This document shows, one piece after another, positions 36,390-53,517 of a stretch of DNA of 64,000 nt. Position 1 is the stretch's first letter. Each line of letters opens with the position of its first letter. This DNA comes from Deinococcota bacterium (GTDB lineage: Bacteria > Deinococcota > Deinococci > Deinococcales > Thermaceae): the NCBI GenBank assembly GCA_041695225.1, contig JBGFRI010000005.1, positions 37,272 to 101,271 of the forward strand, written 5' to 3'. Position numbers and translations under genes: made by a program. The notes below the pieces were generated by a model that did not search any database, was not told the origin of the DNA, and saw nothing but the letters and a program-made list of their open reading frames with translations.

Positions 36390-36429
36390 TAGGCGAGTCG
36401 CTTACGCGATTCCGGCAAAGCCGTAACCT
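36390..36429 (+). mobile_element. 40-nt element, copy 1 (identical to the insertion in vapC)
   Basis: TAGGCGAGTCGCTTACGCGATTCCGGCAAAGCCGTAACCT; CCTAG at both ends here. Confidence 0.85.
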
Positions 36430-36500
36430 AGTGCTACTGGCTGGTCTTCCCATGACATATCAGGAATAGGCTTTCGTGGAGTTAGGCCTCGAGGTTACCC

Positions 36501-37334
36501 ATGAACGAAACCACTGCCAAGCAGTCTGCACCTCTGTTGGGTGCAGCCATGCCCATTCGCTCAATCGCCGCTCACCGCGACTGGCTGCTGGAGGAAGGCG
36601 GGCGCGACCTGGAGATACAGGACAGTTTTCATGCACGGGCGCTGGACAGCGACTGGGCGCCACTGGTAGCCCAGGCCAGGACTGCGCTGGACGGTTATGC
36701 CGGGAGGCTGGGCATCCACGGCCCCTACGACGGCCTGTCCATTGCCAGCACCGACCCGGCGGTACAGCAGTTTGTGGCGGGGCGCTACCTGAGGGCGCTG
36801 GAGTTTGCCGCGGCGCTGGGTGCAACTCACATGGTAATCCACAGCCCCTTCTTGTTTTTTGGTCATCCACAGGTGGCTCACTCACCGGAAAACGGGCTGG
36901 CGCAGGAGCTCGAGGCCGCCCATCAGACCCTGGCCAGCGTACTCTCGGTAGCCAGCGGCCTGGGCCTGACCCTGGTGATTGAGAACATCTGCGACACCAA
37001 CCCCGCCCCCCTGCTGGAGCTGGTGCGCTCCTTTGACTCCCCCTGGGTTCGGCTCGGCCTGGATGTCGGACATGTACATCTGATGCAGCGCATTGGCGGC
37101 CCCACCCCCGACGCATGGGTGCGCCAGGCCCGGAGCCTGTTGGGGCACCTGCACCTGCAAGACAACGATGGAACCTACGACTATCACTGGAACCCGGGCC
37201 AGGGCGGGGTCAACTGGTGGGCATTGTTCGCTGCACTGGCCGAGACTGCTGGCGCCCCCCGGCTCATCCTGGAAACCAAAGGCTCGGTGCTACCTGCTGC
37301 ACACTGGCTGGCCAGGCAGGGCTTTGCTCGCTAA
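36501..37334 (+). CDS. Xylose-isomerase-like / AP-endonuclease-2 TIM-barrel metalloprotein
   Basis: IHGP, IHSP, IENI, LDVGH, HLHLQDN, DYH, LET: endonuclease IV-type metal-ligand pattern. Confidence 0.8.
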   Translation: MNETTAKQSAPLLGAAMPIRSIAAHRDWLLEEGGRDLEIQDSFHARALDSDWAPLVAQARTALDGYAGRLGIHGPYDGLSIASTDPAVQQFVAGRYLRALEFAAALGATHMVIHSPFLFFGHPQVAHSPENGLAQELEAAHQTLASVLSVASGLGLTLVIENICDTNPAPLLELVRSFDSPWVRLGLDVGHVHLMQRIGGPTPDAWVRQARSLLGHLHLQDNDGTYDYHWNPGQGGVNWWALFAALAETAGAPRLILETKGSVLPAAHWLARQGFAR

Positions 37335-37582
37335 GGCATTCAGGACCAAGGCGGGCCGGATGCCAGGACCAGGGGAAAAGTGGTCAGACGGTTGCGATTT
37401 CTCTGTCCTGACGCAGCACAGGTCTGGCCTGCGCTGACCGCTGCTTGACACAGGCAAAATATACATTGGTCTGTGCAGATATTAGCCAGCCGGAAGCCCG
37501 GCGCTCAGGGCCCGGAGTATACCCAGTATCCCGAACCATTCGCCGGCCAGCAAGACTCAACCAGCCCCTGTGGAGGTTTGCC

Positions 37583-38017
37583 GTGGCAGAGGCGCTAGAC
37601 CAGGGCGCTATCCTGAGCCTGCTTTGCCGGGCGCCCGCACCGGCGGTAAAAGCTCTGGCCGATCAGATCCTGCCCACCCTGGCCCAGCAGGGCAGCCTCG
37701 AGGTGGTGCATAACCGCACCGGGCTGGTCATGCTGCCCTACCGCGATACCGTTCAGGGGGTCTTGTTTCACCTGGGCGAGGCGCTGATGGCCGAGGGACA
37801 GGTGCGGCAGGCCGGGTTTACCGGCTACGGGGCATGTCTGGGACGCGATCTGGAACAGGCCCTGGCGGTGGCACTGCTCGATCTGGCCGTGCAGCAGGGG
37901 GTGGGCCTGGACAAAATTCAGCCCTTTCTGGCCGAGGAGTCGCTGCGCCAGCAGGCCGAGCAAGACCAGTTGCTGCGCAAGGTAGAAGCTACCCGGGTGC
38001 AGATGGAGACCTTCTGA
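37583..38017 (+). CDS. phnG: C-P lyase subunit PhnG
   Basis: GGAGG + GTG; RTGLVMLPYRD...FHLGEALMAE...KVEATRVQMETF; TGATG overlap with phnH. Confidence 0.85.
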   Translation: MAEALDQGAILSLLCRAPAPAVKALADQILPTLAQQGSLEVVHNRTGLVMLPYRDTVQGVLFHLGEALMAEGQVRQAGFTGYGACLGRDLEQALAVALLDLAVQQGVGLDKIQPFLAEESLRQQAEQDQLLRKVEATRVQMETF

Positions 38018-38556
38018 TGGCCCCTGTCCAGACCCCCCTCGAGGCCCGCACCCAGGCCAGCTTCCGCGCCATGACGCAGGCCCTGGCCTACCCCGGCCAG
38101 CTTTTTCCGCTGCCCGAAAGCCCCCAGCCACTGTTTTTGCTGGGCGAGGTGCTGGCCGACCAGGAGACCCGCTGCTACACCCCCGATACCGACTTACTGC
38201 GGTTGCTGCGGGATACCGGGGCGCGCCTGGCAGAACCGGCGGAGGCCGACTACCTCTTCTTCCCCAGGGTGGAGGAGGCCAGCCTGGCCCAGATTGCCCT
38301 GGCCCGGCGTGGCGAGCTGCTCTACCCCGACCGCGCCGCCACCCTGGTGCTGGGCGTGAGCGCCAGCGGCCCGGCCCGTCGCTGGTCTGGTCCTGGCATC
38401 AAAGGGGAGCAGCTGGTCAGGCTGGGTGGGCTGCCCGAAGAATTCTGGCGACTGCGCCAGCAGGCCGTGCACTACCCGCTGGGCTGGGATGTGTTTTTTG
38501 TGCTGGGAAGCCAGGTGCTGGGGCTGCCCCGCACCACCAGCGTGGAGGTGAGCTAG
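38017..38556 (+). CDS. phnH: C-P lyase subunit PhnH
   Basis: QASFRAMTQALAYPG, YPDRAATL, SGPGIK, YPLGWD, GLPRTT. Confidence 0.9.
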   Translation: MAPVQTPLEARTQASFRAMTQALAYPGQLFPLPESPQPLFLLGEVLADQETRCYTPDTDLLRLLRDTGARLAEPAEADYLFFPRVEEASLAQIALARRGELLYPDRAATLVLGVSASGPARRWSGPGIKGEQLVRLGGLPEEFWRLRQQAVHYPLGWDVFFVLGSQVLGLPRTTSVEVS

Positions 38557-39651
38557 ATGGCCTATGTTGCAGCCAGAGGCGGTGAGCAGGCCATCCAGGA
38601 AGCCGAGCGGCTTTTCGCCGAGCTACGGGGCGGGCTGAGCCCGGGGCGGGTTTTGGCCGTGCAAGAAGCCCTGCCTTACCTGCTAGACCGGGTGATGGGC
38701 GAGGCCTCGCTTTATGCCCCCGAGCTGGCCGCCCTGGCCCTGGCCCAGACTGGGGGCGAGCTTTACGAAGCGGTGCTGCTGCTGCGGGCCTACCGCACCA
38801 CCCAGCCCCGCCTGGGCTATGCCCAGCCGGTGGAGCAGGACCAGCTTCTCACCCTGCGCCGCATCTCGGCCGCCTTCAAAGACCTGCCAGGTGGGCAGGT
38901 GCTGGGCCCTACCCTGGACTACTCCCACCGGGTCTTGCGGCTGGAGGTGGTCAAAAACGGTGCAACCCTGCTCGAGCAGGCTAGTCTGGCCCAGCAGCCC
39001 GCCCCGCCCCATTACCCGGCCCTGGCGGCCTGGCAGCGCCAGGCCGGCCTCTTGCCCGCCCACACGCCCGATCAGACCCCGCTGGACGAGATACCCGACC
39101 TGACCCGCGAGCCGCTCTTGTTCCCGGCGCCCAGAGCCCATCAGCTTCAAGGGCTGGCCCGGGGCGATACCGGCGGCATTCTGACCCTGGGCTACGCCGA
39201 TATGCGCGGCTACGGCATCAGCCACCCCACCATCAACGAGGTAAGGCTGGGCGAAGCCGAGGTGCGGCTCTGCCACCCTGGCACCGGGTCAGTTTTCAGC
39301 GCGGGGCGGGTACGGGTCTCGCAGGCCGAGATTGTGAGCAAGTTTGCCGGCTCTGCCGAGAAGCCCGAGCTCGAGCTGGGCTTTGCCGCTACCCTGGGCT
39401 GGAACGAGGTCAAGGTAATTGCCGCGGCCATGCTCGAGCTGAACATGCGCTCCCCCGAGCCGCACCCCGCCCATACTGCCGAGTTTGTGCTCTACCACAC
39501 CGAGCCGGTAGAGGCCTCGGGCTTCTGTATCCACTACAAACTGCCGCACTACGTGACCTTCCAGTCGGCCCTCGAGGCCATGCGCCGGGTGCGCGAGCAG
39601 CCCGGGCCACCGCAGCAGGCCCAGGAAGAGCCCCAGGAGGTAGAGCCATGA
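38557..39651 (+). CDS. phnI: C-P lyase subunit PhnI
   Basis: MAYVAARGGEQAI, RRISAAFKDLPGGQVLGPT, HPTINE, GFCIHYKLPHYVTFQS. Confidence 0.95.
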   Translation: MAYVAARGGEQAIQEAERLFAELRGGLSPGRVLAVQEALPYLLDRVMGEASLYAPELAALALAQTGGELYEAVLLLRAYRTTQPRLGYAQPVEQDQLLTLRRISAAFKDLPGGQVLGPTLDYSHRVLRLEVVKNGATLLEQASLAQQPAPPHYPALAAWQRQAGLLPAHTPDQTPLDEIPDLTREPLLFPAPRAHQLQGLARGDTGGILTLGYADMRGYGISHPTINEVRLGEAEVRLCHPGTGSVFSAGRVRVSQAEIVSKFAGSAEKPELELGFAATLGWNEVKVIAAAMLELNMRSPEPHPAHTAEFVLYHTEPVEASGFCIHYKLPHYVTFQSALEAMRRVREQPGPPQQAQEEPQEVEP

Positions 39652-40568
39652 AACTGGCCGACCTGGTCCAGCCCTGGCAGGACCACAGCTACGCCTTCTT
39701 AGACCAGTCGGCGAAGCGCGAACTGCGCCGCAAGATTCTCAAGGCCATCGCCCTGCCCGGCTACCAGGTACCCTACGCCAGCCGCGAGGTGCCCATGGCC
39801 CGGGGCTGGGGTACGGGGGGCCTGCAGGTCACCCTGGCCCTGGTGGGCCCTGGCGATGTGCTAAAGGTGATTGACCAGGGGGCCGACGACTCGGTCAATG
39901 CCGCCAGCCTGCGCCGCTTTGTGGCCCGCATGACCGGGGTCAAGACCACCACCGATGCCCTGGCTGCCACCATTATCCAAAGCCGCCACCGCATTCCCGA
40001 GGAAATTCTGCAAGAAGGGCAGGTGCTGGTCTTGCAGGTGCCCGACCCCGAGCCGCTGCGGTCGGTGGAGCCCAACATCTCCCAGGCCCGCCAGATGCAC
40101 GCCGATGCGGACTACGGGCTGATCTGGCTCAAGCTCTACGAGCAGCTGGTGCGTTACCGGCGGATCATCCAGGGGGCCAGCTACCCGGCGCTGGTGCATG
40201 GGCGCTACGTGATGAGCCCCAGCCCGATCCCCCGCTGGGACCTGCCCAAGCTGCACCAGGCCAAAAGCCTGACCCTGCTCTCGGCCGGGCGCGAGAAGCG
40301 GCTCTACGCGGTGCCTCCCTATACCGAGGTGCGGCCCCTGGCCTTTGACGACGTGCCCTTCCAGGTCGAGGATCAGCGGGCTTTTGCCTGTTTTCGCACC
40401 GGGGTGCGCCACAAGTTTTTGAACGAGCTGCCGCAGGACGACGGCTCGGCGCTCTACGAGCTTTCCGACTCGGGCTATGGCGAGAAGATTCTGCGCCAGG
40501 CCGCAACCGGCCCTACCTACTTCGACCAGCAGGGGAGGTTTTACCATGACGGCTACCTGCGCGACTGA
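39648..40568 (+). CDS. phnJ: PhnJ homologue lacking three of four conserved cysteines
   Basis: KAIALPGYQVPYASRE, GWGTGGLQ, IDQGADD, QSRHRIPE, SPIPRWD, GREKRLYAVPP; C-terminal CFRTG...YELSDSGYG. Confidence 0.93.
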   Translation: MKLADLVQPWQDHSYAFLDQSAKRELRRKILKAIALPGYQVPYASREVPMARGWGTGGLQVTLALVGPGDVLKVIDQGADDSVNAASLRRFVARMTGVKTTTDALAATIIQSRHRIPEEILQEGQVLVLQVPDPEPLRSVEPNISQARQMHADADYGLIWLKLYEQLVRYRRIIQGASYPALVHGRYVMSPSPIPRWDLPKLHQAKSLTLLSAGREKRLYAVPPYTEVRPLAFDDVPFQVEDQRAFACFRTGVRHKFLNELPQDDGSALYELSDSGYGEKILRQAATGPTYFDQQGRFYHDGYLRD

Positions 40569-41361
40569 GCCGCTTCTGCCGCCAAAGCTGGTTAGTTTGC
40601 AGCCGCTCTTGCGGGCCGAGGGGCTGTACCGCCGTTACGGGGCGGTAAGCGCCCTGGAAAACGTTTCGCTCGAGGTCTACCCCCGCGAGGTACTGGGGGT
40701 GGTGGGCGAGAGCGGCTCGGGCAAGAGCACCCTTTTGCGGCTTTTGAACCTGGAAGAGACCCCCGATGCCGGGGTGTATAACCTGGAGCTGGACGGGTAT
40801 CGGGAGGCCAACCTGTTCGCCCTGGACCGCTACGCCCGCCGCGAGCTGCGGGTGCGGCATATCGGCATCGTCTACCAGAACCCCTACCTGGGCCTGCGTA
40901 TGCGCAACACCTCCTCGGGCAATGTGGCCGAGCGGCTGGTGTTGGGTGGCGAGCGCAACTTTGCCCGGCTGCGCCAGGTGGCCCAGAGCTCGCTGGCAGC
41001 CTCGGAGTTCCCCTTGCAGAGGATGGACGCACCCCCCATTCAGCTTTCGGGGGGAATGCAGCAACGGGTGCAGCTGGCCAAGGCCATCGCCCTGCGGCCG
41101 GCCCTGCTGCTACTGGACGAGCCCACCACCGGGCTGGATGTCTCGGTGCAGGCCCTGGTGCTAGACACCCTGCGCCGGCTGCGCCGCGAGCTGGGGGTGG
41201 CCATGCTGGTGGTCTCGCACGACCTGGGGGTGATCCGCACCCTTTGTGACCGGGTGCTGGTGATGCGCCACGGGCAGGTGGTGGAGAGCGGCCTGGTAGA
41301 CCAGGTGCTCGACGACCCCCAGCACCCCTACACCCAGCAGCTGGTGCACGCCAAACTCTAA
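40546..41361 (+). CDS. phnK: C-P lyase ABC-type ATPase PhnK
   Basis: GESGSGKST, SSGNVAERL, LSGGMQQR, DEPTTGLDVSVQA, DDPQHPYTQQLV. Confidence 0.92.
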   Translation: MTATCATEPLLPPKLVSLQPLLRAEGLYRRYGAVSALENVSLEVYPREVLGVVGESGSGKSTLLRLLNLEETPDAGVYNLELDGYREANLFALDRYARRELRVRHIGIVYQNPYLGLRMRNTSSGNVAERLVLGGERNFARLRQVAQSSLAASEFPLQRMDAPPIQLSGGMQQRVQLAKAIALRPALLLLDEPTTGLDVSVQALVLDTLRRLRRELGVAMLVVSHDLGVIRTLCDRVLVMRHGQVVESGLVDQVLDDPQHPYTQQLVHAKL

Positions 41362-41370
41362 GGGCCCGCC

Positions 41371-41976
41371 ATGAAAAGACTCAGCCCCCATCCCACCATT
41401 CACCCTACCGCAGTTATCAAAAGCTCCAGGCTGGGGGCCTGGTGCGAGGTAGCACAAGAGACCAGTATTGTGGAGTCGGAAATTGGCGATTACAGCTATC
41501 TGATGCAGGGCTGCCAGTTGATTTACACTCAGGTGGGAAAGTTCTGCTCCATTGCCTCGTATGTGCGGCTCAACCCCGGCAACCACCCCTTAGACCGGCC
41601 CACCTCGCACCACCTTACCTACCGCGCCGCCCAGTATGGCCTGGGGCAGGACGAGCAGGCCTTTTTCGAGTGGCGCCGCTCAACCCCCGTGGTCATCGGG
41701 CACGATGTCTGGATCGGCCACAACGCCACGGTAATGCCCGGGGTGAGCGTGGGCCACGGGGCGGCCATTGGCGCGGGGGCGGTGGTAACCAAAGATGTGG
41801 AGCCTTACACCATCGTGGTGGGGGTTCCGGCCAGGCCGCTGCGCCTGCGCTTTAGTCCCGAGATCATCGAGGGCTTGCAGCGCATCGGCTGGTGGGACTG
41901 GCCGCACGAGCTGCTCAAGGAGCGCCTGGCCGACCTGCGAGGGAGCACCCAGGCTTTTGTGGAGAAGTACGCATGA
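41371..41976 (+). CDS. Hexapeptide-repeat acetyltransferase, phosphonate-cluster type
   Basis: IGDYSY, GKFCSIASYVRLNPGNHP, IGHDVWIGH, GAGAVVTKDV. Confidence 0.88.
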   Translation: MKRLSPHPTIHPTAVIKSSRLGAWCEVAQETSIVESEIGDYSYLMQGCQLIYTQVGKFCSIASYVRLNPGNHPLDRPTSHHLTYRAAQYGLGQDEQAFFEWRRSTPVVIGHDVWIGHNATVMPGVSVGHGAAIGAGAVVTKDVEPYTIVVGVPARPLRLRFSPEIIEGLQRIGWWDWPHELLKERLADLRGSTQAFVEKYA

Positions 41977-42755
41977 GGCTGGGCCTGATTGCCGACGTTC
42001 ACGGCAACCTGCCGGCCCTTCGGGCTGTGCTGGATGAGCTAAAAAGACTGAAGGCCGAGCTGGTGCTGTGCGCGGGGGATCTGGTGGCCTACGGGGCCTT
42101 TCCCAACCAGGTGATTGCGCTGCTGCGCCAGCAGGCCATCCCCTGTGTGCTGGGCAACTACGACCAGGCCGCCGCCTGGGACCTGAGCACGGCCAGCTCC
42201 CGGCCCAGCAGCCCGCGCACCGAGCCGCTCAAACGGGCCGCGCTGGCCTGGGCGCAGCAGCAGCTTGGTGAAGATAATCGGCGGTATTTGCGCGGCCTGC
42301 CCTGGCAGATGGAGTACCGGTTCGACCAGCAGACCTACCGCCTGTTACACGCTGGGCCAGAAAAGCTCGATGAGAGCTACAGCCCGCAAGACCAGGCTGG
42401 CCTCTGGCGGCTAGCCTCGAGCCTGAGGGCCGACGTGGTAGTGCTGGGCCACACCCACCAGCCCTTTGCCCAGCAGGTGGGAAAGACCCTGTTCATCAAC
42501 CCCGGGGCAGTCGGGCGCAGCCTGGACGGCGACCCCCGGGCCTCGTTTGCCCTGCTGGAGACCCAGAGTATGAGACTTGAGTTTTTTCGTATTTCCTACG
42601 ACCTCGAGGCCGCAGTGCAGGCTGTGCTAAACAGCGGGATGCCGCGCGAAATCGCCACCCTGCTGCGCTTTGGCCTGCGCCGCATTGAAGATGCTCCCCA
42701 GGGGGTGCGCGTAGCGCATGGAGTGGGTGATGCAGTGGTCGAGGATTTGGAGTGA
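41973..42755 (+). CDS. Calcineurin-like metallophosphoesterase (YfcE/MJ0936-like)
   Basis: DVHGN, GDLV, GNYD, LLHAG, GHTH, NPGAVG. Confidence 0.88.
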   Translation: MRLGLIADVHGNLPALRAVLDELKRLKAELVLCAGDLVAYGAFPNQVIALLRQQAIPCVLGNYDQAAAWDLSTASSRPSSPRTEPLKRAALAWAQQQLGEDNRRYLRGLPWQMEYRFDQQTYRLLHAGPEKLDESYSPQDQAGLWRLASSLRADVVVLGHTHQPFAQQVGKTLFINPGAVGRSLDGDPRASFALLETQSMRLEFFRISYDLEAAVQAVLNSGMPREIATLLRFGLRRIEDAPQGVRVAHGVGDAVVEDLE

Positions 42756-42798
42756 CTAACCGATACTCGCTATGCGAGTAACCTAAGGAGGCTAGCCT

Positions 42799-43488
42799 GT
42801 GAAAGTACTGGAAGTGCGTGACCTTGCTAAGCGCTTTATCCTGCACCAGACCGGCCGGGAGATTCCAGCGTTCAGTAGCCTCAGCTTCGATCTGGCCGCA
42901 GGCGAATTCTTGCTGGTGGCCGGGCCTAACGGGGTAGGGAAGTCTACCCTGTTGCGCTCGCTTTTTCGCACCTACCGGCCCAGCGCTGGCTCGGCCTGGT
43001 TTTACTCGAATTATGGCCGGGTTGACCTGGCCCGCGCCGCCGACGTGGATATTGCCCTGCTGCGGCGGGAGGAGATCGGGATGGTCAGCCAGTTCCTGCG
43101 CCCCCGCCCGCGGGTGACTGCCCTGGAACTGGTGGCCGAACCGCTGCTGGAGGCCGGGCAGCAGGATGCTTTTACTACTGCCGAGCGCTTTTTGCGAGCC
43201 TTTGCCCTCAAACCCGAGCTGTGGGCTGCTTATCCCAGCACCTTTTCCGGCGGGGAGCAGCAGAAGGTCAACCTGGCCCGGGCCCTGATCCAGCCCCGTC
43301 GCTTGCTGCTGCTAGATGAGCCGACAGCCAGCCTGGACCACCAGACCCGCGAGGCCCTGGTGGCGCGGCTGGCCGAGCTGAAAGCAGAGGGTACCGCCCT
43401 GGTAGGAGTCTTTCACCACCCCGAGGAAGTGGAGCACTTGATTGACCGTGAGCTGCGCCTGGAGGTGCTGGAGTATGGAGCTAGGTGA
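42799..43488 (+). CDS. phnL: C-P lyase ATPase PhnL
   Basis: KRFILHQ, GPNGVGKST, STFSGGEQQKVN, LLLDEPTASLD, GVFH. Confidence 0.92.
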   Translation: MKVLEVRDLAKRFILHQTGREIPAFSSLSFDLAAGEFLLVAGPNGVGKSTLLRSLFRTYRPSAGSAWFYSNYGRVDLARAADVDIALLRREEIGMVSQFLRPRPRVTALELVAEPLLEAGQQDAFTTAERFLRAFALKPELWAAYPSTFSGGEQQKVNLARALIQPRRLLLLDEPTASLDHQTREALVARLAELKAEGTALVGVFHHPEEVEHLIDRELRLEVLEYGAR

Positions 43489-44695
43489 TACCACCCTCGA
43501 CCATGTCACTTCCCGTCCATTGTGGCTGAGTGAGCTGCGACTGGTGCTGCCGGACCGGGTGCTGGAATCGGCCTCGTTGCGCATCGAGGGTGGGCGGGTG
43601 GCCGAGGTGCGTGAAGGCCCGGCCCCCCACCCCGACCTGCACTGTGCGGGCCTGACTGCGATACCTGGCCTGGTAGATCTGCATGGCGATATGCTCGAGC
43701 GGGAGGTAGAGCCGCGCCCGGGCGCGCAGCTTCCCCTCGAGATGAGCCTGCTGGAGCTCGACAAGCGGCTGGCCGCAGCCGGCGTCACCACCGCCTACGC
43801 GGCCATCTCCTTCGCCGAGCATCGCCAGAAAGGCCAGATTCGCACCGAGGAACGGGCCCGCGAGCTGGTGCAGGGGGTTGCGGGCTTAAGAACCGGGCTG
43901 CTGGTGGACTTCCGGGTACACGCGCGATTCGACATAACCAACCCCCGCGCCGCCCCTGTGCTCACCGAGCTGCTGGGGGAGGGCCTGGTAGACATGGTCT
44001 CGCTCAACGACCACACCCCAGGCCAGGGGCAGTACCGCGACCTGGAGCACTATCTGGGCTTCATCGCTCGGTGGCGCGACCAGAGCCGCGAGGAAGTAGA
44101 AGCCCGCCTGCAAGAACGTCTGTTGCAGGCCAGGGACGTGCCGGTAGCCTGGGAGGTGGTAGCCGAGGTAGCCCAGCTTGCCGCCCAGAACGGGTTGAGA
44201 CTGGCCTCGCACGACGACGACACCCCAGCAAAAGTAGAGCTGGTACATAAGCTAGGGGCCAGCATCAGCGAGTTCCCGGTAACCAGGGAGGCCGCCCAGG
44301 AGGCCCGGCAGAGGGGCATGGCGGTGGTGATGGGCGCCCCCAACGCCCTGCGTGGGGGCTCGCTTGCGGGAAACCTGTCGGCCCTCGAGGCCCTGCAGGC
44401 GGGGCTGCTGGACATCCTGGCCGCCGACTACTACCCTGCCGCCATGCTCCAGGCCGCCTGGACGATTGCTGCACGCGGCTATCTGTCACTTCCGCAGGCC
44501 ATCGGCCTGGTTACCCTGAACCCGGCCCGCGCAGTAGGGCTGCACGACCGCGGGAGCCTGGTTCCAGGTCAACAAGCCGACCTGGTCTTGTTGGAGACCA
44601 GCCCACGGCTGCGGGTGGTAGGTACTTTGCGCCAGGGGCGTTTTATCTACTGGGCAGGGCACAAAATGCTGCGCTCTGCGGTGGCTGCTTGGTGA
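43475..44695 (+). CDS. phnM: Alpha-D-ribose 1-methylphosphonate 5-triphosphate diphosphatase PhnM (copy 1)
   Basis: PGLVDLHGD, SLNDHTPGQGQY, ASHDDDT, MGAPN, DYYP. Confidence 0.92.
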   Translation: MELGDTTLDHVTSRPLWLSELRLVLPDRVLESASLRIEGGRVAEVREGPAPHPDLHCAGLTAIPGLVDLHGDMLEREVEPRPGAQLPLEMSLLELDKRLAAAGVTTAYAAISFAEHRQKGQIRTEERARELVQGVAGLRTGLLVDFRVHARFDITNPRAAPVLTELLGEGLVDMVSLNDHTPGQGQYRDLEHYLGFIARWRDQSREEVEARLQERLLQARDVPVAWEVVAEVAQLAAQNGLRLASHDDDTPAKVELVHKLGASISEFPVTREAAQEARQRGMAVVMGAPNALRGGSLAGNLSALEALQAGLLDILAADYYPAAMLQAAWTIAARGYLSLPQAIGLVTLNPARAVGLHDRGSLVPGQQADLVLLETSPRLRVVGTLRQGRFIYWAGHKMLRSAVAAW

Positions 44696-45101
44696 TGCCA
44701 GATCACGGGCAACAATACCGCTTGCGAGGCTGCCAGTACGCAAGGTCGCGAGCAAAAGCCCGCCTCGGTGGGCTGCAATACAAAAATACTTCAGGTTTAT
44801 GGCCGTCATCGCCAGGGGCCTAAAGCCCTTCAAGGGTGGAAAAAGGCGGCGACGCCCGGCCCAATGGCGGCGGAGGGCTCGCCGGATGGTGTGGCGGCTC
44901 GGGGTGAGGCCTGTTGGGACCTGGTGTTAAGAGCACACTGCCCAGGGCTTTTGCCCACTTGCCCCGAGGGAAATTCGACTCCGATGGTCTACGGCAGATC
45001 CGACGCTGCGCTTTGACCCGGGTATTTGTCAGGCCGAGGTAATAGGTCTGATGACGCTGGACTCACGGCCTCCCGTTAACTTTCTTGCGGGAGGTAGCCC
45101 T

Positions 45102-45878
45102 TTGATTCACCTCGAGTCTGTCACCCACCGCTTCGCCAACGGTACCCAGGCCCTGGCCGAGATCACCCTGGAGATGCACCCGCATCACTTCACCGTGCTT
45201 ATTGGGCCATCCGGCGCGGGCAAGTCTACCTTAATGCGCGTGATCAACGGGCTGATTCGCCCCAGTGAAGGGCGGGTCTGGGTTGGAGGCCAGGAGATCA
45301 CCCGCGCCCCCGCTGCGGCCGCGCGGAAGGCCCGACGCGAGATCGGGATGGTCTTCCAGCAGTTTAACCTGGTGAAGCGCCTCACCGCGCTGGACAACGT
45401 CTTGCTGGGCCGCCTGGGCTACCGTGCCATGTGGCGCAGCCTGACCCGGGCCTTCCCCAAAGCAGAAGTGGAGTTCGCCTTTCACCTGCTGGAACGCGTA
45501 GGCATGGCCGACTACGCCTGGCAGCGGGCCGATACCCTGTCCGGTGGCCAGCAGCAACGGGTGGGTATTGCCCGGGCCCTTGCCCAAAAGCCCAGGGTAA
45601 TCCTGGCCGATGAGCCCATATCGGCCCTCGACCCCAAAAGCTCGGAGCAGGTGATGGCAATTTTACGCTCCATCCGCGATCAGGACGGCCTGATGGTCAT
45701 CGCCAACCTGCACTTTCTGGGCGCCGTTCGCGAGTATGCCGACCGGGTGATCGGGCTGCAAGCGGGCCGGGTGGTCTTCGATGGCAGCAATGGCGACCTT
45801 ACCGATGGCGCTGCGCGCATGCTCTACTACGGCGAAAACCCATTACCAACTGACTCACCACAACTGGCTATCTCATAG
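45102..45878 (+). CDS. phnC: Phosphonate ABC transporter ATPase (copy 1)
   Basis: [48 protein letters not shown]. Confidence 0.92.
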   Translation: MIHLESVTHRFANGTQALAEITLEMHPHHFTVLIGPSGAGKSTLMRVINGLIRPSEGRVWVGGQEITRAPAAAARKARREIGMVFQQFNLVKRLTALDNVLLGRLGYRAMWRSLTRAFPKAEVEFAFHLLERVGMADYAWQRADTLSGGQQQRVGIARALAQKPRVILADEPISALDPKSSEQVMAILRSIRDQDGLMVIANLHFLGAVREYADRVIGLQAGRVVFDGSNGDLTDGAARMLYYGENPLPTDSPQLAIS

Positions 45879-45887
45879 GAGGAAGAC

Positions 45888-46751
45888 ATGAAACGTTTGC
45901 TCAGCCTGATAGTTCTTTTGTTTGGCCTGGCCCTGGCCCAGCCCAGCCCAGCCCCCGGGGTCTGCCCCGCCGAGATCCGCTTCGGTATCCTGCCAGCCGA
46001 TGAGGCCGCGGTACGGTTGCGTTTTAATCCTCTGTTCGAGTACCTGCAGCAGCAGACCGGCAGCCGCTTCCGGGTTACGGTGGGGGCAGACTATGCCGCC
46101 ATCATTGTGGCCATGGCCCATGACCGCCTGGATCTTGCATGGTTTGGGCCAGAAGCCTACGTCCAGGCCGCCAGGCAGACCCGGGTAATACCGCTGGTCA
46201 TAGCGGACCGGGTAAATGCTGGCCGCTCCTATCACAGCCTGATCCTGGTGCGGGCCGACTCGCCCTTCCGCACCCTCGAGGATCTGCGCGGTAGAAACTT
46301 TGCCTTTGTTGACCCCAACAGCACCAGCGGCTATCTGATCCCGCTGGTTCATTTTCTGCGTGAGGCCCGCATACGTCCTGAAGACCACTTCCGCCAGGTG
46401 GTGTTCGCAGGTACCCACCCCGCCGCCATTCTGAGCGTTCTCAACGGCAGGGTAGACGCCACCGCTACTGCAGACACGACCCTGAGCCGGATGATTGCAG
46501 CGGGCCAGGCCAGACGGGAAGATTTCCGAGTCATCTGGACCTCACCCCCTATTCCTAACAGCCCCGTTACTGCAAGCGCACGGCTTTCTGTACCTTGCCG
46601 CGCCCTCATAACACGGGCTTTTCTGAGTCTGCGTGACCCCCGGGTGCTGGAAGGTTTTGGGGCCACGCGCTTTGTAGTGGTAACTGACGCCGAGTATGCC
46701 ATGGTGCGCGAGGCTGGTCGGTTGCGCGACGAGCTGGCCAGGCAGCGCTAG
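45888..46751 (+). CDS. phnD: Phosphonate ABC transporter substrate-binding protein (copy 1)
   Basis: Signal ALAQ; FAFVDPNSTSGYLIP, GTH, PPIPNSP. Confidence 0.9.
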   Translation: MKRLLSLIVLLFGLALAQPSPAPGVCPAEIRFGILPADEAAVRLRFNPLFEYLQQQTGSRFRVTVGADYAAIIVAMAHDRLDLAWFGPEAYVQAARQTRVIPLVIADRVNAGRSYHSLILVRADSPFRTLEDLRGRNFAFVDPNSTSGYLIPLVHFLREARIRPEDHFRQVVFAGTHPAAILSVLNGRVDATATADTTLSRMIAAGQARREDFRVIWTSPPIPNSPVTASARLSVPCRALITRAFLSLRDPRVLEGFGATRFVVVTDAEYAMVREAGRLRDELARQR

Positions 46752-46759
46752 GACCGCCC

Positions 46760-47590
46760 ATGCTTGAAGCCAGCCCACGCTCGCCCGTGACCAGACCCCC
46801 CGCGTCGGTTCAACGCGCCAAGCGTTTCAACCTGGTAGCAGCGGTCCTGGTACTTCTGGCACTGGCGGCAGCATATCCACTCACCGAGATCAGCCCAGGC
46901 GGGCTGATCTCGGGCATAGGTGACTCGGTTCGGTTCATTTTCGGCTCTCCTGACCGCCCCGGATCAGGTTTTTTCCCTCCCGATTTCTCTCGCATCGAGA
47001 CCTACACCGTGCAGATGCTGGTGACCGTGGCCATGGGCCTCTGGGGGACCGTGCTCTCGCTGGTGCTGGCAGTGCCACTGGCATTTATGGGGGCGCAAAA
47101 CGTGGCCCCTACCTGGTTATATAACCTGACCCGGCCGGTACTGGACTTCATGCGTGCGCTGCCCGACCTGGTGCTGGCGCTGATATTTGTAGCAGCGCTG
47201 GGTCTGGGCCCATTCCCCGGCATCATGGCGCTGGCCTTTAGCACCGTGGGCAGTCTGGGCAAGCTCATCTCCGAAGCCATCGAAGATGTGGACCCGGGCC
47301 AGGTCGAGGCAGTCAAGGCCACCGGAGCTTCCCCTTTGATGGTACTGCTGTATGGGTACTGGCCGCAGATCCTGCCACTCTTTACCTCTTACACTCTGTA
47401 CAGGTTCGAGGTTAACGTTCGGGCCGCGACCTTCCTGGGCATTGTTGGGGCAGGTGGCATCGGCTTTTACCTGCAGGAGGCCATGCGCGGCTTCGACTTT
47501 CAGGCTACTCTAGCGATCATTATCATCATCCTGATCACCGTGCGGCTGGTTGACTGGAGCTCGGCCAAGCTGCGGGCCCGGATCATCTAG
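46760..47590 (+). CDS. phnE: Phosphonate ABC transporter permease (copy 1)
   Basis: GLGPFPGIMALA, KLISEAIEDVD, LYRFEVNVRAATFLGIVGAGGIG. Confidence 0.92.
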   Translation: MLEASPRSPVTRPPASVQRAKRFNLVAAVLVLLALAAAYPLTEISPGGLISGIGDSVRFIFGSPDRPGSGFFPPDFSRIETYTVQMLVTVAMGLWGTVLSLVLAVPLAFMGAQNVAPTWLYNLTRPVLDFMRALPDLVLALIFVAALGLGPFPGIMALAFSTVGSLGKLISEAIEDVDPGQVEAVKATGASPLMVLLYGYWPQILPLFTSYTLYRFEVNVRAATFLGIVGAGGIGFYLQEAMRGFDFQATLAIIIIILITVRLVDWSSAKLRARII

Positions 47591-47758: not shown

Positions 47759-47999
47759 GTCATTGCAAGGAGGCCCTTATTTTGTCATTGCGAGGAGGCC
47801 CTTGGGCCGACGAAGCAATGGACTGGGTGATGGAGTGGCCGAGGATGGGGATGATTAATCTATCCAGGAGAGGCTCGTAAGCCCATCAGCCGTCGAGGTG
47901 ATCTGGATTGCTTCGCATCCTTCGGATGCTCGCAATGACGAAAATATACGTTCCCGTCGTCATTGCGAGGAGGCCGCAGGCCGACGAAGCAATCCAGGA
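47759..47999. repeat. Cluster of GTCATTGCGAG...GAAGCAATC palindromic (REP-like) repeats
   Basis: Copies at 47784-47819 (+), 47905-47939 (-) and 47959-47999 (+), partial at 47759; includes the 45-bp repeat at 47818-47860. Confidence 0.85.
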
Positions 48000-48232
48000 G
48001 GGCATGCATGCAACTTGACTAGCGGGATGCTCGGGATCTCTCCTAACGGCCTGCAGGGCATCAGACTTTTGCCTCGAAACGCTCCTTACAAGCGCCGAGC
48101 CTCTTACAGCGTGCTCTTAGACCAAGCGTTGCCGAGGATTCACGGTAACCCAGTGTTTCAAGTCGAGGCAACCGGCCTGGTGGGTAGTGTGCGCTAAGTC
48201 TTTTGGGCTGGATCGGTCTGGGGCAAAAACAG

Positions 48233-49093
48233 TTAGCGAGACCGGGGGTCTAAGCGCTGGCGCATCCACTCACCAAGCAAATTGATGCTGAAGGCGGCCA
48301 GAGCAATGGCCAGCCCGGGGAAGATCACCATCCAGGGGTGGGTGCCCAGGTGAGGCCGCCCCAGAGCCAGCATATTTCCCCAGCTCGGCACGTCGGGAGG
48401 TACGCTCAGCCCCAGAAAGCCCAGCCCGGCCTCGTAAAAGATCATGGCCGAGACCTCGAAGGTAGCCAGGGTGGCCAGCGGGCCCAGCAGGTTGGGCAGC
48501 AGGTGGCGTAGCATTATGCGGCCATCGCTGCAACCCAGGCTGTACGCGGCCTCGACGTAAGGCAGGGCCTTGAGCCGCAAAACCTCCCCCCGCACCAGGC
48601 GGAAAAAGATTGGCGAACAGGTCACCCCGAACAACAGAATCACGTTTTCCAGGCTGCGCCCCAGCACCGAGGCCAGTACCACCACCAGCACCAGGTAGGG
48701 TACGGAGAGCAGCAGGTTGGTAACGCCGCTCAAAATGGCATCGAGCCGGCCCCCGTAGTAACCTGCCAGCAGGCCCAGCCCGACCCCCAGCACCAGGGCT
48801 ACCAACACCCCCAGAAAGCCTACCGTGAGCGATACCCGGGTTCCGTAAATTATGCGTGAGAGCAGATCCTGCCCGAGCTGGTCGGTTCCCAGCAGGTGGG
48901 CTGGGCTACCACCGGGATGCCAGGCGGGGGGCAGGTTGGCATTAATGAAATCGCCCGCATACGGGGAGTGAGGAGCAACCAGCGGTGCAAACACTGCCAC
49001 CAGCACCATCAGCAGCAGAAGTCCAGCCCCCAGAATGCCGCCAAAGTGTCTGCGCGCACGCGGAACAATGCGATGAGATTGAATATTCGCCAT
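48233..49093 (-). CDS. Peptide/nickel-type ABC permease (DppC-like)
   Basis: HLLGTDQLGQDLLSRIIYG, YVEAAYSLG, RHLLPN, FLGLSVPP. Confidence 0.92.
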   Translation of the reverse strand: MANIQSHRIVPRARRHFGGILGAGLLLLMVLVAVFAPLVAPHSPYAGDFINANLPPAWHPGGSPAHLLGTDQLGQDLLSRIIYGTRVSLTVGFLGVLVALVLGVGLGLLAGYYGGRLDAILSGVTNLLLSVPYLVLVVVLASVLGRSLENVILLFGVTCSPIFFRLVRGEVLRLKALPYVEAAYSLGCSDGRIMLRHLLPNLLGPLATLATFEVSAMIFYEAGLGFLGLSVPPDVPSWGNMLALGRPHLGTHPWMVIFPGLAIALAAFSINLLGEWMRQRLDPRSR

Positions 49094-49099
49094 ACTCGT

Positions 49100-50017
49100 T
49101 TATCCCAGCTTCACCCTGGGGTCTAGCCAGGCATAGAGCAGATCGCCAAGTAGCTGCACGGTAATGGCAAAGAAGGCCAGAAAAAGGGTTATGGCCTGCA
49201 CCAGGGGAAAGTCGGCGTCCTGGATAGCGGTGTTGAGCAGACTGCCCAGGCCCGGCCAGGCGAAAATGGTCTCGATGTAGATAGAGCCGCCCAGCAGATA
49301 GGTAAACTGAATTCCCAGCACGCTAACTAGCGGAATGGTCACGTTTGGCAGCACGTGCTTGGTGGCGACCCAGAACTCATTCAGGCCCTTGCCCTTGGCA
49401 GTGCGAACAAAGTCCGAGCCGCGAACCTCGAGCACACTCGCACGCACCAGCCTTACCAGCTGCGAGAAGCCGGCCAGCCCCAGCGCCAGCGCGGGCAGAA
49501 TTAGGGACGCGGGGTTGTCCCGGCCAAAGGAGGGCAGCCAGCCCAGCTCTACTGCAAACAGCAGGATTAGCAGCATTGCCAGCAGAAAACTTGGCACAAC
49601 CTGGCCCGAGAAAGCCAGCCACTGTACCAGCCGGTCAGCCAGGGTTGCCGGCCTGAACCCCGCGATAAGTCCCAACGGGACCGCCATGACCAGCACCAGT
49701 AACAGAGCTGCCAGGGCCAGCTCGAGGGTGACCGGTAAGCGCTGCCAGATTAGCTCGAGGTTGGGCTGCCGGGTACTAAGCGACAAGCCCAGATCACCCC
49801 GGACAAGGCTGGCCAGGTAGTTGTAAAACTGCTCCCACAAGTGCCCGTCCAGGCCCATCTCGGCCCGGAAAGCAGCGCGCTGTTCGGGGCCAGCTTCCTT
49901 GGGGAGCATCAGCGCTACCGGGTCGCCGGTGAGCCGCACCATGAAGAAGACCAGAAATAAAGCGCCCAGCATCAGCATTAGCGACTGTGCCAGGCGAAAG
50001 ACGAGGTAGTGAATCAT
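49100..50017 (-). CDS. Peptide/nickel-type ABC permease (DppB-like)
   Basis: GDLGLSL, DFVRTAKGKGL, ETIFAWPGLG, DFPLVQ. Confidence 0.92.
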   Translation of the reverse strand: MIHYLVFRLAQSLMLMLGALFLVFFMVRLTGDPVALMLPKEAGPEQRAAFRAEMGLDGHLWEQFYNYLASLVRGDLGLSLSTRQPNLELIWQRLPVTLELALAALLLVLVMAVPLGLIAGFRPATLADRLVQWLAFSGQVVPSFLLAMLLILLFAVELGWLPSFGRDNPASLILPALALGLAGFSQLVRLVRASVLEVRGSDFVRTAKGKGLNEFWVATKHVLPNVTIPLVSVLGIQFTYLLGGSIYIETIFAWPGLGSLLNTAIQDADFPLVQAITLFLAFFAITVQLLGDLLYAWLDPRVKLG

Positions 50018-50044
50018 TGATAGGGTCTTGAGCTTACTCCCGGT

Positions 50045-51580
50045 TTAGCGCACACTTACTCCCTTGAGGAAAAACTCCTCGGCGGCGCGGGGGCGGTAGT
50101 TTTGAACTCGAGCATTAACTGCCTCGAAGACCACCAACTGGTATAGATACGCAAAGGGGGGCTCGTCGAACATGCGCCGCTGAATCTGGCGGTAGACGGC
50201 AGCGCGAGCGGTACGGTCAACGGTCGTGCTGGCCTGGGTAATCAGACGGTACAGCTCGGCGTCCTCCCAGGTGTTGAAGAAGGCTCCCGGGGTTAGTGCA
50301 CCAATCAGGCGGGGCAGGGCTTCGCCCACCGTAGACGACCAGCTGTCTACATACATTGGCCCCACCGCGCCATAGCGCTCCTGGCTCCAGAAGGCGGCGC
50401 TGGTTCTGAACTCGAGGGTGAGGTCAATTCCCACCCTGGCCAGGTCGCGCTGAATCGCCAGGCAGACCTCGTTGATGTGCACATAGGCATCGGCCGGGCA
50501 GCCCATGCTGATACTGAAGCCACGCTCGAACCCGGCCTGGGCCAGTAGCTGTCTGGCCCGCTCCGGATTAAAGGGGAAAGGCTGTATGCTGGCGTCAAAG
50601 CCCAGATTGCCCTCAACCACAAAGCCCGAGATGAGCCTGGCGTGCCCACCGAAGATGGCCTGGATAATTCCCGGGCGGTTGATGGCATAGTTGATGGCCC
50701 GCCGCACCTCCACCCTTTCCAGGGGTGTTCCTCTGCCATTGCCCACATTCTTAAAACCGACGTAAAACACCCGGTCGTTGGGGTAGTTGATAACCCGGAC
50801 CCGGGGGTTGTTCTGCAGAGGGGTTACCAGGCCGGAGGTCAGGCGAAGGGCAATATCTACCTCTCCAGTACGCACTGCGGCCACCCGGGTGGTAGCATCG
50901 GGGATTACCCGGAAGACAACCCGCGCCAGCCGGGGCAGGCCCGGTTCGAAGTAGTTAGCATTGGCCTCGAGGACGATCCGGTCTCCGGCCACACGGGAAA
51001 GAAAGCGGAAAGGCCCGGTGCCTACTGGGCGGGCGGCAAACCCGTCGAGCCCAACCTGTCTGATGTAAACAGGGGGCACCATGGCCCAGTTGTTGGCAAG
51101 TATGTTGAGAAAAAGGGCGTTAGGAGCAGCTAGCACCAGGGTGACGCTGGTAGGAGAGTTGACCCGGACCTCTCTTACCAGGCTGTACATCTCGGCATAT
51201 TCGTTAGACTCGTCGCGGCCTGTTTCCCAGGTAGCCACTACACTCTGGGCATCAAATAACTCTCCGTTGTGAAATCTGACCCCGGTCCGCAGGGTGAAGG
51301 TGAACTCTCTACCGTCTGGCGAAACGCTCCAGCGGGTAGCCAGGTCGGGCGCAATCTCACCCTGGTCGTTGACCCAGACCAGTGAGTTATACATCTGCCA
51401 GGCCACATTATGGGCGGTACGGTCGGGAGCACGTGGCACAAACAGGCTTCTGGGGTCGTTGGGCAGGGCTATGGTCAGCTGGCCGCTGGGGCGGGGCGCC
51501 GCGGTCTGGGCCATAACTGCCGGTGTCAGCAGCAGAACCATCCAAAGTAGAACCAGGTAAGGCTTGACGAACTGTGACAT
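50045..51580 (-). CDS. Peptide/nickel-type ABC substrate-binding protein (family 5)
   Basis: PDLATRWSVSPDGREFTFTLRTGVRFHNG, PVGTGPF, VRRAINYAINR. Confidence 0.92.
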   Translation of the reverse strand: MSQFVKPYLVLLWMVLLLTPAVMAQTAAPRPSGQLTIALPNDPRSLFVPRAPDRTAHNVAWQMYNSLVWVNDQGEIAPDLATRWSVSPDGREFTFTLRTGVRFHNGELFDAQSVVATWETGRDESNEYAEMYSLVREVRVNSPTSVTLVLAAPNALFLNILANNWAMVPPVYIRQVGLDGFAARPVGTGPFRFLSRVAGDRIVLEANANYFEPGLPRLARVVFRVIPDATTRVAAVRTGEVDIALRLTSGLVTPLQNNPRVRVINYPNDRVFYVGFKNVGNGRGTPLERVEVRRAINYAINRPGIIQAIFGGHARLISGFVVEGNLGFDASIQPFPFNPERARQLLAQAGFERGFSISMGCPADAYVHINEVCLAIQRDLARVGIDLTLEFRTSAAFWSQERYGAVGPMYVDSWSSTVGEALPRLIGALTPGAFFNTWEDAELYRLITQASTTVDRTARAAVYRQIQRRMFDEPPFAYLYQLVVFEAVNARVQNYRPRAAEEFFLKGVSVR

Positions 51581-51770: not shown

Positions 51771-52571
51771 ATGACTCAGCCCTTCATCCGGTTAGAGCAG
51801 GTGACTCAGCGCTTTGGCAACGGTACGGTAGCGCTCTCTGATATCAATCTGGACTTCTGCACCGACCGCTTTGCGGTACTGATTGGCCCTTCGGGGGCAG
51901 GAAAGTCTACTCTGATGCGCCTGCTTAATGGGCTGCTGCGTCCAACCCAGGGCCGCGTGTTTTTGGGCGATCTGGAGCTTTCCCGGGCTTCCGAGGCCAG
52001 GGTGCGTCAGGCCCGGCGTCAGATTGGCATGGTCTTTCAGCAGTTCAATCTGGTCAAGCGCCTCACCGCGCTGGAAAATGTGCTGACGGGCCGGCTGGGG
52101 TATATGAACCCACTGGCCTCGAGCCTCAAGCTGTATAGGCGTAGCGACCGCGAGCTGGCCATGTTTCTACTCGAGCGGGTGGGCCTGGCCGACCAGGCCT
52201 GGCAGCGGGCCGACACCCTCTCGGGGGGCCAGCAGCAGCGGGTGGGCATCGCCCGGGCCTTAGCCCAGGAGCCGCGCCTGATTCTGGCCGATGAGCCGAT
52301 CTCGGCCCTGGACCCCAAGAGCGCAGAGCAGGTGATGGAGATCCTGCGCGATATCCAGAGCCAGGACGGCATCGCGGTAATCTGCAACCTGCACCACCTC
52401 GAGACCGTGCGCCACTACGCCGACCGGGTAGTAGCGCTCAAACGGGGCCGGGTGGTCTTCGACGGCCCAGCTGCCGGGCTGGACTCCGAGGTCTCCCACT
52501 CGCTTTACTACGACGAGACTACCCAAGCAGAGCAAGTACCCGCACTTACGCCGCAGTTCAGCCCAGCGTAA
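51771..52571 (+). CDS. phnC: Phosphonate ABC transporter ATPase (copy 2)
   Basis: Same motifs as copy 1; close paralogue. Confidence 0.92.
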
Positions 52572-52632
52572 GCCCGGCCAATACTGGGGCCTGACAAATC
52601 AGCTTTAGCTTGAGCATTGGGAGGAGATTCTG

Positions 52633-53517
52633 ATGAAAAATATGCTTGTTCTGTTACTGGCTTTGGTACTCTCTTCGATGGCCCTGGCCCAGGCAGTAGA
52701 CCGCACCGGCTGGCCCCGCGAGATCACTTTTGCCACCGTACCTACCGAGACCGTCCGCGACGCCACCCTGCGCTGGCAGCCCTTCATTGACCATCTGCAG
52801 CAGCGGCTGGGTGTCCGGGTGGTCTTCCGTCCCGGCGCCGATTATGCCGCAGTGACCATCGCCATGGCCAACCGCCAGGTAGATGTGGCCTATTTTGGCC
52901 CGGCCTCCTACCTCGACGCCGTAACCCAGGCCGGCGCCCAGGCCTTCGCCAAAGAAGACTCGGTCACCGGAGGAGACGGGTACTACAGCCTGATTATTGC
53001 CCGGCGCGGCGGCCCCATCCGCACCCTGGCCGACGCCCGGGGCCAGCCTTTCGCCTTTGTGGACGTTGGCTCTACCTCTGGCTTTAGGGTACCCATGCAC
53101 GACTTCTGCACCCGGCTCAATATCGAGCCCACCCAGTACTTTAGCCGGATCTTTTTTGCCGGTACTCACCAGAACGTGATTCTGGGGGTTGCCAACGGCA
53201 CCATCCCGGTAGGCGCCACCTTCGACCTAGGGGTCATCGCCGCTACCCGCGAAGGCCGGATCAGGGGGCTGGAGCAAGAGTTTTATGTTCTGCACCGCTC
53301 GGCCAGAATTCCTTCCTCACCCCTGGCCTACCGCCGCGACCTGCCCGCAACCCTCAGGCGTGAGATTCAGCGGGCCATCCTGGAGTTCAACAACCCCGAG
53401 TGGTTTGCTGGGCTGGGGCTGCGGCGCTTTGTGGCTGCCACCCCAGAAGAGTACGAGTCCTTCCGGCCAGTGGTCGCCTTCCGCACATCCACCTGCCCGC
53501 CGCGCAGAGCCCCATGA
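52633..53517 (+). CDS. phnD: Phosphonate ABC transporter substrate-binding protein (copy 2)
   Basis: GAGGAG RBS; signal ALAQ; FAFVDVGSTSGFRVP, GTHQ, IPSSP. Confidence 0.9.
   Translation: MKNMLVLLLALVLSSMALAQAVDRTGWPREITFATVPTETVRDATLRWQPFIDHLQQRLGVRVVFRPGADYAAVTIAMANRQVDVAYFGPASYLDAVTQAGAQAFAKEDSVTGGDGYYSLIIARRGGPIRTLADARGQPFAFVDVGSTSGFRVPMHDFCTRLNIEPTQYFSRIFFAGTHQNVILGVANGTIPVGATFDLGVIAATREGRIRGLEQEFYVLHRSARIPSSPLAYRRDLPATLRREIQRAILEFNNPEWFAGLGLRRFVAATPEEYESFRPVVAFRTSTCPPRRAP

Follow-up and report, generated by a model that had tools for sequence, protein, structure and literature searches.

A trinuclear-type TIM-barrel protein is a candidate finishing enzyme of carbon-phosphorus lyase operons, including operons with a Cys-less PhnJ

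How is the pathway of a carbon-phosphorus (C-P) lyase operon completed when the enzymes known to complete it are missing? The question is raised by a phn cluster in a stretch of 64,000 nucleotides (hereafter the window) of contig JBGFRI010000005.1, from a Meiothermus-like Deinococcota genome (assembly GCA_041695225.1, 92.3% complete). Numerous C-P lyase operons contain neither phnP nor phnN, and the way in which they complete the pathway is an open question (PMC10574752). In the window, phnG to phnM are accompanied by genes for a TIM-barrel protein (TIM) and a binuclear metallophosphoesterase (MPE), and the PhnJ encoded there lacks the cysteine motif of its canonical counterparts (Cys-less PhnJ). 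A preliminary description, made from the sequence alone, proposed that one or both enzymes replace the phosphodiesterase PhnP, either by opening the cyclic phosphate made by PhnJ or by acting on the substrate that the Cys-less system would use instead. The reading that we favour, with a probability of about one half, is that TIM finishes the pathway in the manner of PhnPP, which Ghodge et al. in 2013 are said to have described as a PHP-family cyclic phosphodiesterase of C-P lyase operons, and that it also serves other imported phosphodiesters, with MPE as an accessory, not always present, that would act on triphosphate or dead-end intermediates. The strongest evidence concerns a related subfamily found in canonical operons, TIM-B, and would carry over to the TIM of the window by fold, metal ligands and gene context.

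No known finishing enzyme was found in the genome

PhnP, PhnN and PhnF, at first noted as missing around the operon, were not found in the rest of the genome either. Searches of the entire assembly detected no PhnP, PhnN or DUF1045 protein, no PhnF match above the cut-off and no second phnJ; in particular, no phnP or phnN homologue was found away from the locus. PHP-type genes (with the Eggerthella PHP protein as query), EEP genes and GDPD genes were likewise not found in this genome. The DUF1045 model had no match in the control genomes, yet matched 22 of 47 other genomes, while PhnP (TIGR03307) was not detected above its cut-off in 47 genomes with a Cys-less phnJ. TIM and MPE themselves match neither TIGR03307, nor the RcsF/DUF1045 models (PF06299/TIGR03223), nor the PHP domain. 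The lack of phnF as a trait of the Cys-less clade was ruled out, a GntR/PhnF-like gene being present in all 22 alphaproteobacterial Cys-less loci.

TIM has an intact endonuclease IV-type metal site

TIM is a protein of 277 residues with a clear match to Pfam AP_endonuc_2 (PF01261, E 3.6e-26), and its closest named homologues are from Meiothermus. By sequence, the nearest solved relative is Thermus TTHB071 (3AYT/3AYV, E 2.9e-18), and the top Foldseek matches are 3WQO and 3AYV, so that TTHB071 and MJ1311 are its nearest solved relatives by sequence and fold. The position of the gene and its series of metal ligands (H,H,E,D,H,H,D,H,E), both given in the preliminary description, were borne out: H73, H114, E161, D188, H191, H218, D227, H229 and E258 are invariant in 119/119 homologues, and those inside the aligned stretch agree with TTHB071. 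We take these nine residues to map onto the trinuclear set of endonuclease IV. TIM is thus probably a trinuclear, probably zinc-dependent, phosphoesterase, as judged from its sequence. The subfamily to which it belongs, TIM-A, comprises 693 clusters at the cut-off used, which databases call sugar phosphate isomerase/epimerase.

TIM-B probably displaces the known finishing enzymes in canonical operons

A scan with MPE turned up canonical operons, with all four PhnJ cysteines, in which the genes are ordered phnK-MPE-phnL-phnM-TIM and which belong to Desulfobacterota-type anaerobes. The barrel proteins of these operons define TIM-B (604 clusters at the cut-off used, from Desulfobacterota, Nitrospirota, Spirochaetes and some archaea), in which all nine metal ligands are kept. 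The TIM-B gene follows phnM in the 4/4 members looked up, all in canonical operons without phnP or phnN, and five such canonical operons were seen in all. Metallo-beta-lactamase genes beside TIM-B were ruled out as PhnP, as they give no TIGR03307 match.

In 20 operons of the phylum Desulfobacterota found through PhnJ, TIM-B never shared an operon with PhnN, PhnP or DUF1045. Eleven carry TIM-B and none of these has PhnN; five have PhnN, accompanied by DUF1045 (4) or PhnP (1), and are without TIM-B; the remaining four have none of them. The exclusion between TIM-B and PhnN gave a Fisher p of 0.008, for operons of related organisms that are not independent. This pattern is a signature of non-orthologous displacement, and makes TIM-B (L171:4553-5512, L246-L249, L252-L266) the best candidate for a new replacement of PhnP and PhnN. 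Since PhnN is lost as well, the pattern suggests that hydrolysis would proceed onward to ribose 5-phosphate. Firmicute and Eggerthella operons show the PhnPP version of the same arrangement, with a PHP protein and no PhnN (nine canonical loci have PHP without PhnN); the product of PhnPP is ribose 5-phosphate (PMC8774927).

The metallophosphoesterase of these operons, MPE-B, stands beside TIM-B wherever the locus reaches far enough. Because it accompanies TIM-B instead of replacing it, the job of MPE-B would differ from that of TIM-B. The specificity of TIM and MPE to Cys-less systems is ruled out by these related subfamilies: with the two slots occurring in canonical operons as well, the proposal that the two enzymes act on an alternative substrate peculiar to the Cys-less system did not hold.

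MPE belongs to a phn-linked clade without the GNH histidine

MPE (260 residues) is a Metallophos_2/YfcE-family protein (TIGR00040, 77.6 bits vs a cut-off of 56.25). Its calcineurin-like nature and coordinates were confirmed, as was the overlap of its start with the stop of the preceding TIGR03308 acetyltransferase gene (ATG and TGA sharing ATGA at 41973-41976). All seven metal ligands (D8, H10, D36, N62, H126, H160 and H162, in the motifs DxH, GD, GN, H and GHxH) are conserved. The GNH(D/E) motif is replaced by GNYD, Y63 taking the place of the histidine in 118/119 homologues, and the phn-linked clade has an invariant pocket of Y40, K87 and R182. In CthPnkp, Rv0805 and YfcE, it is the GNH histidine that promotes 2',3'-cyclic phosphodiesterase activity, a rule to which one exception has been published (PMC2190708, PMC3407115); lacking this histidine, MPE falls outside the GNH-type 2',3'-cyclic phosphodiesterases such as Rv0805 and CthPnkp. 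The nearest structure is that of SapH, an Ap4A hydrolase and phosphodiesterase. The MPE of the window belongs to a subfamily, MPE-A, that is monophyletic (support 100/98), and MPE-A and MPE-B together form one side of a branch with a support of only 77/73.

The last 14 or so residues of MPE are encoded by an 88-bp repeat, and database variants of the same cluster stop at 247 residues; the conserved core is untouched by the insertion. Short forms of this repeat (45 bp) occur elsewhere in the genome, and the right ends of this repeat and of the 41-nt mobile hairpin located 5' of TIM are alike. The ESM Atlas gave, as a lead only, unnamed members of the same families and fusions of MPE-like proteins with CHAD or Ppx domains.

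The Cys-less PhnJ retains its ligand pocket

The window PhnJ contains one cysteine, C248, and does not have the Cys241/244/266/272 motif of canonical radical S-adenosylmethionine PhnJ, the positions of E. coli C244/C266/C272 being T/L/G. The E. coli residues that bind the cyclic phosphate are the loop 47-50, R107, H108 and Q124 (PMC9947105), and the corresponding pocket (G53-T56, R113, H114 and Q130) is kept. This PhnJ is part of a clade in which 60 loci have lost three of the four cysteines, 12 of these having lost the first one too, and which spans four phyla: Deinococcota, Chloroflexota, Alphaproteobacteria and hot-spring Synechococcus (L004-L031, L084-L101, L124, L146-L158). As the motif cysteines are lost, radical C-P cleavage as it is known cannot take place in these proteins. 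The positions binding the cyclic phosphate are invariant across the clade, and a 5-phosphoribosyl ligand is therefore probably still handled, as far as these residues tell. In 18 of the 22 alphaproteobacterial carriers, a second, higher-scoring phnJ is present, whose canonical motif was read directly in L010. Synechococcus OS-B' (ABD01166.1) belongs to the Cys-less clade, and its complete operon is without PhnP, TIM and MPE; the strain, whose only examined phn operon is Cys-less, has been reported to use phosphonates (PMC9600594).

MPE-A is tightly, and TIM-A loosely, linked to Cys-less phnJ

Co-occurrence was assessed in 55 Cys-less loci reached through PhnJ, covering about 10 kb on either side, some loci being incomplete. 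MPE-A was present in 6 of them, TIM-A in 13, a third TIM type in 3, an EEP protein in 1 and DUF1045 in 1, while PhnP or PHP was found in 0/55. MPE-A and TIM-A shared no locus in this sample, and both were absent from the 53 canonical loci of the first sample. Thus both subfamilies do occur with Cys-less phnJ, but in a minority of the loci, and the link is tight for MPE-A and loose for TIM-A.

The usual place of MPE-A is, almost always, between phnK and phnL of Cys-less operons: it adjoins phnK/phnL in 6/6 Deinococcota genomes, 7/7 long contigs and 3/4 further metagenome loci, and none was found in 100 relatives without phnJ. The TIM-A profile matched 15/28 Cys-less genomes vs 1/22 comparison genomes. 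Away from phnJ, 15 of 18 TIM-A loci lie beside ugpAEB-like transporter genes with no GDPD gene, and in alphaproteobacteria TIM-A ends phnDCE-phnM modules or other ABC operons. The last slot of Chloroflexota Cys-less operons is taken by TIM-A (3 loci) or by an EEP phosphodiesterase (3 loci). MPE is accompanied by a TIM or EEP enzyme in the window and in L147/149/150/151/170, and in the canonical L171/248/249 too. The EEP-family protein occupying the terminal slot of three Cys-less operons (L150:12361-13236, L157 and L170) is another candidate replacement.

A Pho-like box precedes the phosphorus genes

A direct repeat, CTGA(C/T)(A/C)-N5-(C/T)TGAC(A/C), was learned from the upstream regions of TIM genes in relatives. 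Its best-scoring copies in this genome precede pstS (L159), ppx (L160), surE (L161), a ugpB-like gene (L162), arsC (L164) and the second phnC; it is also found before phnG and phnM2 (window sites 37434, 51733 and 54335), with a weak copy before TIM. The CTGAC direct repeat of 11-bp period is enriched over a reversed control in most relatives, and a count of spacer lengths gave no genome-wide excess at spacer 5. Support for a Pho box hence comes from the genes that the best sites precede, the spacer count giving none, and the repeat is probably the Pho box of Meiothermus/Deinococcota. Because a gap of 250 bp holding a Pho-box-like repeat separates TIM from phnG, and TIM has a box of its own, TIM is probably a separate transcription unit of the same regulon as the phnG operon. 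Searches detected neither a sigma-70 promoter nor an Rfam family. The RNA runs contained only 8-11% of the words, as contigs of a relative, and are uninformative on expression.

TIM as finishing enzyme and the alternatives

According to the reading that we favour, TIM would take the terminal step normally performed by PhnP and PhnN or by PhnPP. Its substrate would be the ribose-1-linked phosphodiester that the PhnGHIJ complex leaves behind, namely the 1,2-cyclic phosphate or what corresponds to it in the Cys-less system; after hydrolysing it, TIM would probably release inorganic phosphate (Pi) to yield ribose 5-phosphate, making the PhnN kinase unnecessary. TIM-A would be a broad phosphodiesterase of phosphate starvation, imported phosphodiesters included. 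MPE would belong to the phnK-phnL unit as a dedicated yet optional component and would most likely be, like SapH, a nucleotide pyrophosphohydrolase or acyclic phosphodiesterase, targeting triphosphate or dead-end ribosyl intermediates, and not the main opener of the cyclic phosphate. We infer all substrates and products in this scheme from the folds, ligand sets, contexts, missing substitutes and Pho-like boxes that were observed.

Several observations weigh against this reading. Neither TIM nor MPE is present in 33 of the 55 Cys-less loci, that of Synechococcus OS-B' included. TIM-A was found in 12/19 Cys-less relatives and also in 11/100 relatives without phnJ, and its presence shows no enrichment with phnJ inside the genus (6/8 vs 9/17, p 0.40); one of the eleven, G010, is 77% complete and has phnCDE at a contig end, so it could carry an unassembled phnJ. 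TIM-B is only about 26% identical to TIM-A and sits on a separate long branch, in a tree without an outgroup, which bears on any common origin of the two. TIM is not part of the phnG operon and has a weak box only, and the GNH rule applied to MPE has a published exception (PMC3407115). Finally, the premise that PhnJ makes a cyclic phosphate needing a phosphodiesterase stands for canonical PhnJ but does not extend to the Cys-less form. The idea that one or both enzymes open the cyclic phosphate therefore survives in part: in both, the phosphoesterase-type metal site is intact, and both occur together with Cys-less phnJ and in a genome with no known PhnP substitute, but most Cys-less loci lack them and MPE is without the GNH histidine. 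Likewise, replacement of PhnP agrees with the mutual exclusion seen for TIM-B, but TIM-A and MPE-A are found in a minority of Cys-less operons only.

It is possible, if unlikely, that MPE is the replacement of PhnP, as a hydrolase of cyclic or acyclic ribose-1-phosphodiesters, and TIM a co-regulated general scavenger in the role of UgpQ for imported phosphodiesters. The translational coupling of MPE within the operon and its near absence elsewhere, the position of TIM-A beside ugpAEB-like genes lacking GDPD and the lack of a locus shared by MPE-A and TIM-A would fit; the presence of MPE in 6/55 Cys-less loci only, the loss of the GNH histidine and the redundancy of MPE where a TIM or EEP enzyme co-occurs argue against it. 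We consider it quite unlikely that neither enzyme handles the lyase product, housekeeping phosphoesterases acting in trans while TIM and MPE widen the phosphorus sources or clear side products. The many Cys-less loci with neither gene speak for this, as do the TTHB071-like paralogue (on C44) and three other metallophosphoesterases held by this genome and the DUF1045 gene found elsewhere in 21/22 alphaproteobacterial genomes; however, TIM-B and PhnP, DUF1045 or PhnN are mutually exclusive, and TIM or EEP phosphodiesterases have repeatedly been recruited to the end of the operon.

An improbable scheme would dispense with radical chemistry, the Cys-less complex making a ribose-1-phospho-X diester or amide from a phosphorus source other than a phosphonate, and MPE or TIM replacing the lyase step by cutting the P-X bond. 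Loss of the cysteines with retention of the ribose-phosphate pocket is in line with it, the second phnJ of alphaproteobacteria suggests a different substrate, and the GNY site of an acyclic diesterase would fit; yet neither gene can be the core catalyst, as canonical operons have the two slots too and the genes are both missing from most Cys-less operons, and Synechococcus OS-B' reportedly uses phosphonates. Rather unlikely, too, is a wider proposal in which the Cys-less PhnGHIJKLM clade (at least 60 loci) performs radical-free phosphorus scavenging through a 5-phosphoribosyl intermediate, TIM and/or the GNYD MPE being new enzymes that hydrolyse this intermediate to ribose 5-phosphate and Pi. 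Most improbable is that TIM is a sugar or sugar-phosphate epimerase/isomerase, as its automatic names have it. D-tagatose 3-epimerases do come close behind in fold searches and CUT1-type ABC transporters are neighbours, but sugar epimerases of this fold have a single-metal site, whereas all nine trinuclear ligands are invariant here, and the best-scoring assignment of the neighbouring transporters, which have Pho-like boxes, is UgpABE.

Organization of the cluster

On the + strand, the order is TIM, phnG, phnH, phnI, phnJ, phnK, the acetyltransferase gene, MPE, phnL, phnM and phnCDE, followed later by a second phnCDE-phnM module (Table 1). Stand-alone phnD-phnC-phnE-phnM(-TIM) modules that resemble the latter adjoin alphaproteobacterial Cys-less operons (L022, L023, L025 and L026). 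Family-5 ABC transporter genes inside or beside Cys-less phn clusters were seen both in the window and at L147:1-4176, and an organophosphorus compound may be what this transporter takes up. Between phnE and these genes, at 47780-48000, is a third family of multi-copy repeats. On the other side, a 305-residue open reading frame without a Pfam match (35219-36136, - strand) is divergent from TIM, and a phoD alkaline phosphatase gene and an inorganic pyrophosphatase-like open reading frame are found at 25669-27908, 9-11 kb 5' of the cluster.

Table 1. Features of the phn cluster, in window coordinates
Feature	Coordinates	Strand	Remarks
41-nt mobile hairpin repeat, TIM promoter region	36390..36431		Dozens of near-identical genomic copies; outside the system
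Weak Pho-box-like direct repeat 5' of TIM	36441..36457	+	Score 10 of 17
AP_endonuc_2 TIM barrel, subfamily TIM-A	36501..37334	+	Nine endonuclease IV-type ligands; predicted trinuclear phosphodiesterase/phosphatase
Pho-box-like direct repeat 5' of phnG	37434..37450	+	Score 14.7
phnG	37584..38017	+	Likely start GTG 37584, preceded by a ribosome-binding site
phnH	38014..38556	+	
phnI	38557..39651	+	Zn-site histidine motif reads as conserved
Cys-less phnJ	39648..40568	+	Single phnJ of the genome
phnK	40549..41361	+	
Hexapeptide-repeat acetyltransferase	41371..41976	+	TIGR03308
Binuclear metallophosphoesterase (MPE), subfamily MPE-A	41973..42755	+	YfcE/SapH-like, GNYD motif
88-bp repeat inside MPE 3' end	42698..42785		Conserved MPE residues all upstream
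phnL	42799..43488	+	
phnM	43475..44695	+	
First phnC-phnD-phnE	45051..47590	+	
Family-5 ABC transporter genes	48233..51580	-	Binding protein and two permeases; within the cluster
Second phnC-phnD-phnE and phnM2	51771..55503	+	Top-scoring Pho-box-like repeat at 51733

Comparison with known systems

Displacement of PhnP is a known idea, with the 2H protein and PhnPP as examples, and the TIM and MPE families were not found reported in that role; the literature covered, which included few subscription papers, gave no account of a Cys-less PhnJ, nor of TIM or MPE in phn operons. If our reading is true, the trinuclear AP_endonuc_2 barrel would add a fourth way of finishing the pathway and account for the operons of many anaerobes, and some 1,300 clusters (693 TIM-A and 604 TIM-B, at the cut-offs used) now called sugar phosphate isomerase/epimerase would be re-annotated. 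The MPE subfamily set between phnK and phnL hints at an accessory step not recognised so far, and the substrate range of TIM and MPE is one of the few handles on the role of the widespread Cys-less PhnJ system.

Compared with SapH/Spr1479 of Streptococcus (3QFM/3QFN) and YfcE of E. coli, MPE has the same binuclear fold and likewise a residue other than histidine after GN (Trp in SapH, Cys in YfcE, Tyr in MPE), but with an identity of about 25% it forms a distinct, phn-linked clade. TIM shares its AP_endonuc_2 barrel and ligand series with endonuclease IV, with TTHB071 (identity to Thermus TTHB071-like proteins, about 35%) and with CbiR, whose feature is the hydrolysis of a small-molecule ribose phosphodiester (10.1101/2020.09.02.280537). 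TIM as CbiR was ruled out, as it scores 32 bits vs a cut-off of 105 bits (NF041277), and unlike that of CbiR its context is phosphorus scavenging, not cobamide genes. The reaction proposed for TIM on the 1,2-cyclic phosphate is that of E. coli PhnP (TIGR03307), an enzyme of metallo-beta-lactamase fold and unrelated sequence. RcsF/DUF1045 (PF06299, TIGR03223) is likewise a displacement of PhnP inferred from gene context (PMC10574752, PMC3266647); it has a metal-independent 2H fold, travels with PhnN and was not found in this genome. A close parallel is PhnPP, also proposed as a trinuclear barrel enzyme finishing the pathway without phnP and phnN and showing the same gene-content pattern; unlike PhnPP, TIM belongs to AP_endonuc_2 and not to the PHP superfamily, and TIM-A also travels with other transporters.

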